From positions 1 to 5,666 of the IMG/VR virus record IMGVR_UViG_2531839238_000021: a stretch of 5,666 nt of DNA; one strand, written 5' to 3'. Position 1 is the stretch's first letter. Each line of letters starts with the position of its first letter. Position numbers: made by a program. This DNA comes from a virus. Its lineage: Duplodnaviria; Heunggongvirae; Uroviricota; Caudoviricetes. Below are positions 3,001 to 5,666 of the stretch, piece after piece.

Positions 3001-5666
3001 AGTGACAGATAAAGCGGAACGTCAGTCAGATGAGTTCTTGTCAGCTTATGCTGAATTTCCAGATATTGACTTACTATGGAATGGTTTATATCGAAAATTT
3101 TAACTTTGCCATAATGCATAAGGAAAAGCGCCCTGATGCATTTGGTGGCCAGAACGACTGAGCCGGGCTTAAGTGACAACGTATCCTTTTCAAGAAAAAT
3201 ATTAATTGGGGAGCAAACCATGATAACTGAACAGACAACAACCATTATAATTTTACTTTCATTAGCAATTGGTTAGTTCAATTATAGCCCCAAAAGGTAA
3301 ATTATCATCAACACATAAGCAAAGGACTGACAGGTGCCGCTAACCCCACCAGCCGCCCATTTACCACAAATAAAAAAGCCTTCAGGACTGAAGGCGTCTG
3401 TAACAACCGAACTGATAGTCTGCCAGACCCGCCATAACCAGCTGGGTCAGTATTAACTGGCAGCGTTCGCGTGAAAGGTACGTATTCTGCGCAATCTCCC
3501 CGACCGTCGCCGGTTCGGTGACGCTTAATTCATCAAACACAACTCTGGCGGTTTCTGTCATATCCTGCTGTTTCAGCATGTCTTTTTACCCTTTCCGGTT
3601 AACGTGACACACCAATAACTCTTGTCGAAAAAGCCAGCAAGCTGAAAGACCTGTATTAATAACTACCAGCACATTTAACGCACTGCGCTACTTTGCGGGC
3701 ACAAAAAACCCGCTCAGAGGCGGGGTCAAGCTATGCGGCGAAATAACCACTCTTAACAGCATACCTGATTTTTTACGTACGTAAATGCTTTGCCGTGCAT
3801 ATTTTTCATGCAAATGTCACGTCCTGCTATTTTTCAGTCTTATAAATTTAAAACCATAGAAAAAATCAATTATGTTTTAAAAATGGATAGGTAAAGAATA
3901 ACAAGTGACACAGATTCAAACCAAAATGGAAAAGGGTGGCAACCCACAAACGCCCACTCCACATCCATGACAATCCATACACAACACCAGATAACGTGGC
4001 AAATAATACAAGTAAAGCACCACCTGAATAGTGATAAAAACCAAACAACAAAGCCGCCACAATTAATGCAACCAATGGAGACGTTACTTCTGATAGCCGT
4101 GATTGAATATACCCTCTAAATAATGATTCCTCTGCCAGAGACACAAAAAACAAATTAGCCAATATAAACTCTGGCAACCACTCAGGAAAATGAATCTCTG
4201 GCTTTAATCCACCAAAAAAAACAGCCAAAAACAGGATAAGAGGAACAGAGAGCGACAGAGCCCCCCACTTCCACAAAGACACTTCTGATTTTACTTCTTT
4301 TTTAAACAAAGAAGATGTACACAGGACTAACAAAAATGGCACCAGCGCTTTATCAAAATTAAAATACATTGTATAGGGAGTACTTTGAGGGCCAACAGTA
4401 ACAGAATTTAGCACTACAGGATTGTGAAACCCTGGCCATAGATGGAAAAATAATGCTATGGCTGATAAAACTATGCCAACTTCATATATAGATTTAGCCC
4501 AGGCGTTATATTTCCAGTTGAACTTCAAAATAATAAAAAAAACGATTGTAGCAACAAAAAATAACACCGACCAATCAATAATATCATTAAGCACAGCCAG
4601 GACAACAGACACCGTCAACAATGAAAAAGCCACTACCTTATGCCAACTGAGAGTTGACAGTGACAGTACTAACACAATCCACATAAGCACTCCTTTTATT
4701 TAATGATGAAGATTGATTATCAATATTTTCAATTCACCAGGCAACATTTTATCTACCTTCCACAATACATGACCATCAAAAAATAAACATGTTAATTATA
4801 AACACAGAAAACATAACCCTCATCACTATATATCCCTACCGCATATCCATATCTAACCGGACATTCAGAGCCATAAGCATTCCTTCAATAATACCTTCCG
4901 CTTTATAAAGCCTTTTACCAATAAGCCCATCAGAACATCTATGCTTACGTGCAAGAGCCATAAATGTCATTCCACCTACGTAATAATCCACCAACAAATC
5001 GTGCAAATACTGATTATTCTTGTTTAATCGTGCCATACAACCACAAATTATCATGGCGTCATCATCAGAACACTTAGGACGTGATTTCACTTTAGTCGGG
5101 ATTAATCCTTTAAAACCAGCAGCTATCGAGGGCCATGTTACATCTTCATGATTATTTGCTGCCCATGCCCCCCATCGCTCAAGAACCATCTGGATATCAC
5201 GCGCCATCGTTACCACCTCTGATTTCGTAAATCTTCACGCCCAGCCGTCCACCTGGCACAGGCTGACCGCGCACAATATTGATTTCATCAAACTGCTCGT
5301 CATCAATGAGCACTTCCGCATGCGTCAGCGCATCCAGCGGTGCTTTCAGAATGTTGTCCAGGTCACGGCGGCGCTTATCCGGTGGTTCTGCAATAATTTT
5401 TATTGCCAGCCGTCCGGACAGGCTTAATTTCAGCCGCTGCTGGCGAACAATAAGCGCCACAGCCCGGCGATAACGCTCACCGGCTTTTGATACAAAATAT
5501 GTGCTGCCACGACGTCGCCAGTAGGTGTTCACCGTCGGCGGGTAAGGCAAAACAAACTCTATACGCATCAGTAACCTCTTTTACCCGAGCACGCCGGTTG
5601 CAAAGGCGTGATCAAGAAAACGAAAAATTAAATCAACCTGGGAACCATGCTTTTCTTCGAACGCCA

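Follow-up and report, generated by a model that had tools for sequence, protein, structure and literature searches.

Results

Organization of the locus

The stretch of DNA analyzed here (the window) comprises 5,666 nucleotides (nt), positions 1 to 5,666 of the Caudoviricetes record IMGVR_UViG_2531839238_000021, and the subject of this study is a small gene on its minus strand (3382-3579) for a 65-aa protein of PHROG 331 with a predicted winged-helix fold. A preliminary description of the sequence had presented this gene as a compact, independently expressed unit and as a candidate partner of one of its two neighbors. By its gene content (an antiterminator Q gene, the PR' region, tRNAs, and stx2AB), the window is the late-regulatory region of a Stx2a prophage. 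The genes of interest are all encoded on the minus strand. In the direction of transcription, the 933W-type Q gene (4836-5216; Pfam Phage_antitermQ, E 8.7e-52; 77% identity to the Q of 933W) is followed by a gene for a CPBP/Rce1-like membrane protease (3866-4690; Pfam PF02517, E 1.4e-19), the late promoter PR' (3758-3785), a first terminator-like hairpin (3703-3724), a leader of 123 nt (3580-3702), the small gene, and a second intrinsic-terminator-like element of the late transcript (3372-3395), in which the stop codon is embedded. Downstream are a remnant of a methyltransferase leader (3312-3362), a promoter-like site (3281-3308), and a psrA-type AraC/YdeO-like regulator gene (2532-3245), which matches Pfam HTH_18/HTH_AraC and has YdeO as its best NCBIfam match, below the cutoff. 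The Q-to-tRNA part of the window shares 99.4% identity over 3.4 kb with prophage Sp4 in the O157:H7 strain Sakai (ECs_1084-ECs_1087), where ECs1087 is psrA (PMC13502914; also PMC10877973).

Coding capacity and conservation of the small gene

The small open reading frame (ORF) extends from an ATG at 3579-3577 to a TGA at 3384-3382 and is the longest possible in its frame. A purine-rich, Shine-Dalgarno-like sequence, GGAAAGGG at 3596-3589, lies 9 nt upstream of the ATG, which confirms the 65-aa ORF with its own ribosome-binding site given in the preliminary description. In a codon alignment of 30 loci, the ratio of nonsynonymous to synonymous substitution rates (dN/dS) was ~0.06-0.14 in moderately diverged pairs, and synonymous sites were saturated where the proteins were still >80% identical. 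The invariant residues of helix 3 (C40, I43, L44, T45, Q46, L47, and A50) are specified by two to five different codons each; therefore, selection acts on the protein. A chance ORF and conservation of the RNA alone are both ruled out by the dN/dS values together with the synonymous variation within invariant codons. Searches of a 5.8-billion-protein collection yielded 327 homologue clusters at E <= 1e-3. Homologues and purifying selection across related prophages, two of the signs whose absence the preliminary description would have counted against its gene, were both found, and on this comparative evidence the 65-codon ORF is a real, widely conserved protein-coding gene.

At 50% identity, 1.84 billion proteins contained only 61 representatives, and judged by these sequences the family is narrow, restricted to Enterobacterales, and prophage-borne. 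The identical 65-aa protein occurs on 274 contigs. The small-gene segment was present in ~36% of complete Escherichia coli genomes, with at most seven copies per genome, as counted with a 61-nt query that does not separate intact from frameshifted alleles, the segment being near-invariant in all of them. For many members in the databases, similarity to the query breaks off at about residue 50-58, and the remaining sequence is divergent or an unrelated tail; one member with such a tail is annotated DUF3927. These diverging 3' ends beside the helix-3 segment point to frequent frameshifts or recombination breakpoints.

Fold and family of the protein

An AlphaFold2 model based on a 42-sequence alignment reached a predicted local distance difference test (pLDDT) value of 92 and shows three helices followed by a beta hairpin. 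With three helices, a wing, and similarity to solved structures of this class, the modeled protein has a winged helix-turn-helix fold, as had been anticipated from the sequence. The match to PHROG 331 (E 3e-37) places residues 1-64 on profile positions 35-98. In Pfam, no family was matched at its gathering threshold. The TrmB family (PF01978) scored 17.6 bits (E 0.0034) against a threshold of 25.6, and the RefSeq name "TrmB family transcriptional regulator" is therefore a label at the level of the fold only. MarR_2, HTH_20 (ArsR), and DprA_WH likewise fell short, with 14.2, 13.8, and 14.6 bits against thresholds of 27, 27, and 22.9, respectively. NCBIfam gave no match, PADLOC gave one marginal match only, and searches of Protein Data Bank sequences in single-sequence and profile modes returned nothing or spurious repeat matches. 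Membership in the MarR family, one of the possibilities that the preliminary description had listed for a check, was thus not demonstrated, nor was membership in TrmB or ArsR.

The structural neighbors of the model include RPA32C, TFE, and Z-alpha, winged helices that bind proteins or modified DNA, although the matches are generic. Z-alpha domains contact Z-form nucleic acid through a conserved Asn and Tyr of helix 3 and a Trp of the wing. Helix 3 of the window protein is largely hydrophobic and invariant. A literature search by locus tags and by the PHROG identifier retrieved no described function for the small protein or its named relatives.

The late promoter and the leader of the small gene

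The PR' of the window consists of a -35 hexamer TTTACG (3785-3780), a 16-nt spacer, and a -10 hexamer TATGCT (3763-3758), and was located by alignment with the annotated PR' of 933W. The latter phage, which is without the small gene, has an annotated PR' (TTTACG-16-TATCAT), qut, a first hairpin terminator, and a second terminator; positions 3785-3700 of the window align with its PR', qut, and first terminator. The initial transcribed region after the -10 hexamer is conserved (GTTAAGAGTGGTTAC, also written GTTAAGAGTGGTTA). For prophage Sp5, the start at PR' and a terminated PR'-tR' transcript of 258 nt (StxS) were mapped by Sy et al. (PMC7547250). Transcription in the window would start at ~3752; this position was placed by transcript length and homology because the Sakai coordinates of Sy et al. 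are offset by ~142 nt from RefSeq.

The first hairpin (CCCGC-CTCTGA-GCGGG followed by T6, 3724-3703) was listed by the terminator scan, folds with -9 kcal/mol (z = -2.0), and corresponds by homology to the terminator that is annotated first after qut in 933W. Where a pattern search of related loci, with at least three unrelated Q families among them, located a GC hairpin and T-run, these stood 79-123 nt ahead of the small gene, and a Q-type-specific promoter region came just before the hairpin. Among phages of E. coli and Shigella, the leader is conserved in sequence. Its 123 nt fold no more stably than shuffled sequences (z = 0.13), and Rfam had no match over the small gene or its hairpins; the StxS region is absent from the window, and StxS itself was without an Rfam match here.

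No sigma-70-like promoter was detected on the minus strand of 3702-3580 at the scan threshold, which weak or non-sigma-70 sites could escape. Because PR' lies directly upstream and no promoter-like site was detected in the leader, the small gene belongs to the late transcription unit. It is the first ORF after PR', between two terminator-like hairpins. Its location is that of a late-operon gene as far as the sequence goes: it follows PR'/qut and tR' on the same strand and precedes the lysis and toxin genes. The idea of an independently expressed gene thus holds for the ribosome-binding site and the conserved hairpin and fails for the promoter. The gene does not qualify as a moron for the same reason, with no sigma-70-like site at 3702-3580 and PR' as the nearest promoter.

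A 14-bp palindrome at 3785-3772, TTTACGTACGTAAA, had been suggested as a target of the small protein. It overlaps the -35 hexamer of PR' and reaches 8 nt downstream of it. At the same place 933W has a near-identical palindrome, TTTACGATCGTAAA (2667-2680 of the 933W locus, L005), and other alleles of the 933W-type Q are accompanied by different dyads: GGAATTCC, GCGTACGC, GCGG-T-CCGC, and ATTCG-TTA-CGAAT (loci L002, L003, L004, L010, and L013). The dyad at PR' is followed by an A-run. In this comparison it tracks the Q allele and not the small gene. As part of PR' that is also present in 933W without the small gene, the palindrome was rejected as an operator of the small protein. The PR' dyad is a candidate allele-specific Q-binding element.

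A hairpin around the stop codon

The second hairpin is composed of a 5' arm GCCTTCA (3395-3389), a loop GTCC (3388-3385), and a 3' arm TGAAGGC (3384-3378), followed by T6 (3377-3372). Its stem of 7 bp (4 GC) is perfect, and the TGA stop codon forms the first three bases of the 3' arm, in agreement with the preliminary description. Folded alone, the hairpin has an energy of -10.5 kcal/mol (z = -3.9), and 0 of 200 shuffled sequences folded as well. It was called terminator-like in a consensus scan, and with its T6 it is a predicted intrinsic (Rho-independent) terminator. The scan of the window by itself was not significant, with 6 sites compared with 3.3 +/- 1.9 expected. The hairpin is more than chance because it is kept across loci; here conservation is decisive and the scan alone is not. 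A hairpin that includes the stop codon, either in the loop or in the 3' arm, was found in 28 of 30 homologous loci, built from 17 different stems. The stop codon is in the loop in most lineages (G-UAA or G-UGA loops) and in the 3' arm in the lineage of the window. In the MAFFT alignment, three of the six pairs are changed on both sides. The alignments indicate that the conserved feature is the hairpin, with terminator character limited to some lineages, that of the window included.

Linkage to an adenine methyltransferase gene

The gene neighborhood was compared among phages (phiP27, SfV, mEp460, phiNP, Hafnia phage yong2, 1720a-02, and Stx2a/c/d/k phages) and 21 GTDB genomes, which include Escherichia, Salmonella, Klebsiella, Kluyvera, Citrobacter, Buttiauxella, Mixta, and Plesiomonas. 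The conserved order is Q, hairpin, small gene, ~150 nt, a gene for an N6_N4 methyltransferase of ~350 aa, and then a holin gene or tRNAs and stx. The Q genes belong to at least three unrelated families and lie at a variable distance from the small gene. A methyltransferase gene follows the small gene in 27 of these 30 phage and genome loci. Among IMG/VR loci anchored on the methyltransferase, 78 of 79 have the small gene upstream; among those anchored on the small gene, the methyltransferase is downstream in 57 of 75. An AraC gene is downstream in only 7 of 75 and a CPBP gene upstream in 3 of 80, so neither of the two genes named as partners in the preliminary description is the usual neighbor. 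In the phage and genome loci examined, no endonuclease gene was found in the stretch that separates the methyltransferase from the genes for lysis or toxin.

The methyltransferase belongs to PF01555, the beta-class N6_N4 family. According to Murray et al. (PMC5778455), 1720a-02 and other enterobacterial phages carry close relatives of M.EcoGII, an enzyme that is silent in lysogens and deleterious when made constitutively. The gene order in 1720a-02 is Q, small gene, methyltransferase. From the statement of Murray et al., the gene size, and the family, we infer that the linked enzyme is of the M.EcoGII type. Gene order across these loci argues that the small gene is ancestrally coupled to an M.EcoGII-type methyltransferase.

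The spacer between the two genes measures 147-154 nt in 27 of 27 loci (e.g. L006, 3196-3344). Its conservation exceeds that of the flanking coding DNA, and it contains an invariant motif of 21 nt, AATGGGCGGCTGGTGGGTGTT. A five-hairpin model of the spacer had 13 pairs changed on both sides, compared with 6.5 +/- 1.5 in shuffles (0 of 500 reached this number) and 3-7 in slid controls. No obvious Shine-Dalgarno sequence precedes the methyltransferase ATG, and Rfam had no match to the spacer. By these features the spacer is a candidate for an undescribed cis-regulatory RNA.

Loss of the methyltransferase and related copies

Of the spacer, the window retains only the initial 50-70 nt (3362 to ~3312), as shown by an alignment of 31 loci. 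Homology stops near 3312, and psrA comes after. The remnant contains the motif as AATGGGCGGCTGGTGGG(T)GTT, with one base of the invariant sequence lost, and a hairpin P1, in whose 3' arm C-to-T changes preserve pairing as G-U pairs. The comparison indicates that psrA replaced the methyltransferase in this prophage and that the small gene is an orphaned survivor of the module. Just past the breakpoint lies the site ATGATA-16-TATAAT (3281-3308, minus strand; 10/12 matches, the top-scoring site of the scan). It is probably psrA's own promoter, which the stop-codon terminator would shield from PR'.

The copies in Sakai Sp4 (ECs_1086; L033, 28344-28583) and in PV15-279 (L032, 4364-4560), both in non-Stx prophages, have a 1-nt deletion (ATGGCGGG to AT-GCGGG) that shifts the frame after residue 49 and gives a product of 79 aa. 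RefSeq marks the small gene of PV15-279 "frameshifted", and the CPBP and AraC genes there are annotated intact. Because this frameshift is one clonal event, it is weak evidence for functional dependence on the methyltransferase. In all seven IMG/VR loci with AraC downstream, the small gene has its full length of 65 codons. In 933W, a 35-aa C-terminal remnant of the methyltransferase is left between tR' and the tRNA genes (L005, 2967-3071). The Q-StxS-tRNA-stx2 layout of 933W and Sp5 therefore looks derived, and the remnant suggests that the small gene and the greater part of the methyltransferase were lost in its origin.

Neighboring features

The CPBP protein is the same as AAG55891.1 of EDL933 CP-933N and equivalent to Sakai ECs_1085. 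From its distribution, the CPBP gene is cargo inserted between Q and PR' and not a conserved neighbor of the small gene. The PR' of the window is ~1 kb from the Q gene, with the CPBP gene in between; the PR' of 933W overlaps the Q stop codon. Elsewhere, the Q-PR' junction is occupied by a GIY-YIG nuclease gene (phiP27), by two opposite-strand genes (Stx2a_1447), or by nothing (Stx2_EH2201). A RusA gene (5568-5197, minus strand) precedes Q. Downstream of psrA are three tRNAs (2503-2252) and the stx2A and stx2B ORFs, which end at 1202 and 921 (all minus strand). The first tRNA (2428-2503) was called Met (CAT) by ARAGORN; its homologue is named ileZ in phage annotations, a tRNA-Ile2 with a modified CAT anticodon. 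Just past stx2B, Rfam placed the anti-small RNA AsxR (88 bits; 587-639, plus strand) and, convergent with it, the small RNA STnc100 (208 bits; 641-846, minus strand).

Discussion

Proposed role of the small gene

The explanation that we favor, with moderate confidence, describes the small gene as the first ORF of the late transcript, set between two hairpins, once part of a methyltransferase module in which it had a controlling role and now orphaned. Transcription from PR' (3785-3758) would pass the first hairpin and the 123-nt leader and run through the 65-codon ORF to the hairpin at its stop codon. RNA polymerase modified by Q would proceed past both hairpins and transcribe psrA, the tRNAs, stx2AB, and the lysis genes. 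In the absence of Q, transcripts would stop at either hairpin, and psrA, the tRNAs, and stx2 would be insulated from PR'. The ancestral late module would have consisted of two genes, the small winged-helix gene and an M.EcoGII-type non-specific adenine methyltransferase gene, separated by a structured spacer of 147-154 nt. The small protein would bind nucleic acid, and the invariant spacer, in its DNA or RNA form, is the most plausible target; in this way it would tune expression of the methyltransferase, an enzyme that is harmful when made at the wrong time. That the protein is a nucleic acid-binding controller of the methyltransferase module is our best guess, because the two genes are coinherited at constant spacing and because both helix 3 and the spacer motif are invariant.

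Several observations weigh against parts of this explanation. With a pI of 4.8 and a net charge of -2, the window protein is acidic, and family members span net charges from -4 to +4, which is atypical of a dedicated DNA binder. Cloned M.EcoGII is active without the small protein (PMC5778455); therefore, any role of the latter would be regulatory or accessory. Many copies without a methyltransferase retain an intact small gene, and its function may therefore be independent of the enzyme. A U-tract (at least five T in eight) follows the stop-codon hairpin in only 16 of 28 loci and is missing in ~40% of lineages. For the spacer, RNAalifold favors a partly different fold in which bases 5' of the methyltransferase ATG pair upstream, so that competing structures are possible, and the covariation is modest because the sequence is so conserved. 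Finally, the Sp5 transcript is 258 nt long, and the homologue of the first hairpin is therefore evidently passed, which makes strict dependence on Q uncertain. By analogy with this transcript, lysogens could transcribe the small gene constitutively, and the operative tR' would then be the stop-codon hairpin.

Alternative explanations

The alternative that fares best is about present function alone and does not conflict with the proposed ancestral role. The gene may be a decaying relic, functionless here since the methyltransferase is gone and intact by chance; we regard this as doubtful, though it is the most serious of the competing accounts. The frameshifts of the same cassette in Sakai Sp4 and PV15-279 and the lost motif base in the leader remnant are what decay would produce, whereas the allele of the window is intact, identical on 274 contigs, and full length in 7/7 IMG/VR loci with AraC downstream.

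Two further possibilities are about equally improbable. The first extends the favored explanation: protein, stop-codon hairpin, and ~150-nt spacer together may constitute an undescribed control module for M.EcoGII-type methyltransferases, and the unit from PR' to the stop-codon terminator in the window may be a constitutive short mRNA of the lysogen, a protein-coding analogue of StxS. In this module the protein might bind the spacer RNA or DNA, or translation of the ORF might remodel the spacer, and either would time translation of the methyltransferase. The second is a leader ORF expressed in lysogens, in which a constitutive PR' and a leaky first hairpin would give a transcript of ~380 nt that ends at the stop-codon terminator and acts on the host or on lysogeny through the protein or the RNA 3' end. 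The Sp5 transcript, which runs to the second terminator past the homologue of 3724-3703, agrees with this possibility, as does the strong hairpin with T6 ~380 nt from the inferred start, and StxS demonstrates that leader transcripts can gain functions (PMC7547250). However, the first hairpin with its T6 resembles a competent terminator, the architecture is not general given the lineages without a U-tract, and the tight linkage to a late-acting methyltransferase favors a late role. If the ORF is indeed transcribed constitutively and ended at its own terminator, the "self-contained unit" of the preliminary description would be right in form, with the phage late promoter as its promoter.

It is less likely still that the protein is an anti-restriction or anti-defense accessory that protects progeny DNA by contacting proteins (restriction enzymes, m6A-dependent nucleases, or the methyltransferase) and is not a transcription factor. 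That the gene is coinherited with a promiscuous methyltransferase, right where the late operon begins, would suit such a role, as would the acidic-to-neutral character of the protein, its largely hydrophobic, invariant helix 3, and the protein- or modified-DNA-binding winged helices among its structural neighbors. However, those structural matches are generic, PADLOC offered its single marginal match only, no sequence relative has a known anti-restriction role, and the idea is purely inferential.

The least probable account, which we consider very unlikely, is that of the preliminary description, an independently expressed moron regulator paired with the CPBP or the AraC protein as its repressor, antitoxin, or co-regulator, perhaps through the palindrome at 3772-3785: the ribosome-binding site, the terminator-like hairpin at the stop codon, and the winged-helix fold agree with it, and the CPBP gene, small gene, and AraC gene stand side by side in 540 of the 5426 complete genomes of E. 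coli, but these are mostly near-identical O157:H7 copies (>=99% identity) of one clonal cassette, the conserved neighbor in IMG/VR is the methyltransferase, the small gene is frameshifted in the Sakai/PV15-279 cassette while its two neighbors are annotated intact in PV15-279, the palindrome belongs to PR', and no promoter of its own was found. Co-occurrence with CPBP, which the preliminary description proposed to check in other genomes, was seen in 3/80 IMG/VR loci and in this cassette.

Implications

The small gene itself is an ordinary small winged-helix ORF, and the proposed link to psrA or CPBP does not hold. It gains interest from its position between the late promoter and stx2AB of a Shiga toxin prophage. 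That this phage type has two terminator-like elements on the way from PR' to stx2 is relevant to basal, Q-independent toxin expression. In addition, a conserved and unstudied leader probably controls a non-specific adenine methyltransferase, an enzyme type that is widely used as a tool and harmful to the cell if unregulated. More promising as leads than the gene itself are the methyltransferase leader and the two-terminator arrangement ahead of stx2.

Comparison with known systems

The closest relatives are the PHROG 331 proteins SfV orf47, phiP27 L23, mEp460 gp52, and Sakai ECs_1086, which belong to the same family and are encoded at the same position after Q. The SfV and phiP27 proteins are 94-98% identical to the window protein, and ECs_1086 is its frameshifted equivalent. 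These phages have a methyltransferase gene after the small gene, whereas psrA follows in the window. Non-specific adenine methyltransferases such as M.EcoGII and M.EcoGI are the usual type of downstream partner elsewhere and are absent from the window.

The controller (C) proteins of restriction-modification systems are dimers with an Xre-type helix-turn-helix; they recognize C-boxes ahead of their own gene and in most cases control a restriction endonuclease. The likeness is one of logic only, a plausible one for the control of timing, in that a small protein with a DNA-binding fold would be encoded just upstream of a modification gene that is harmful if mistimed. The window differs in its winged-helix fold, in having no linked endonuclease, in the solitary methyltransferase of its relatives, and in that no operator was identified. 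The fold, which is not an Xre-type helix-turn-helix, and the lack of endonuclease linkage place the small protein outside the C proteins.

The region from PR' to tR' can be compared with the lambdoid PR'-qut-tR'/StxS region of 933W and Sp5, with which it shares a homologous promoter, initial transcribed region, and first hairpin. In Stx phages, PR' is a constitutive promoter that is followed by terminators overridden by Q (PMC7547250). In the window, unlike in 933W, the CPBP gene intervenes between Q and PR'. 933W and Sp5 have a non-coding leader of 258 nt (StxS), whereas the window type has a protein-coding ORF between two terminators. Judged by this alignment, the architecture of the window is a variant of the lambdoid PR'-tR' leader, with a coding ORF in place of the StxS RNA.

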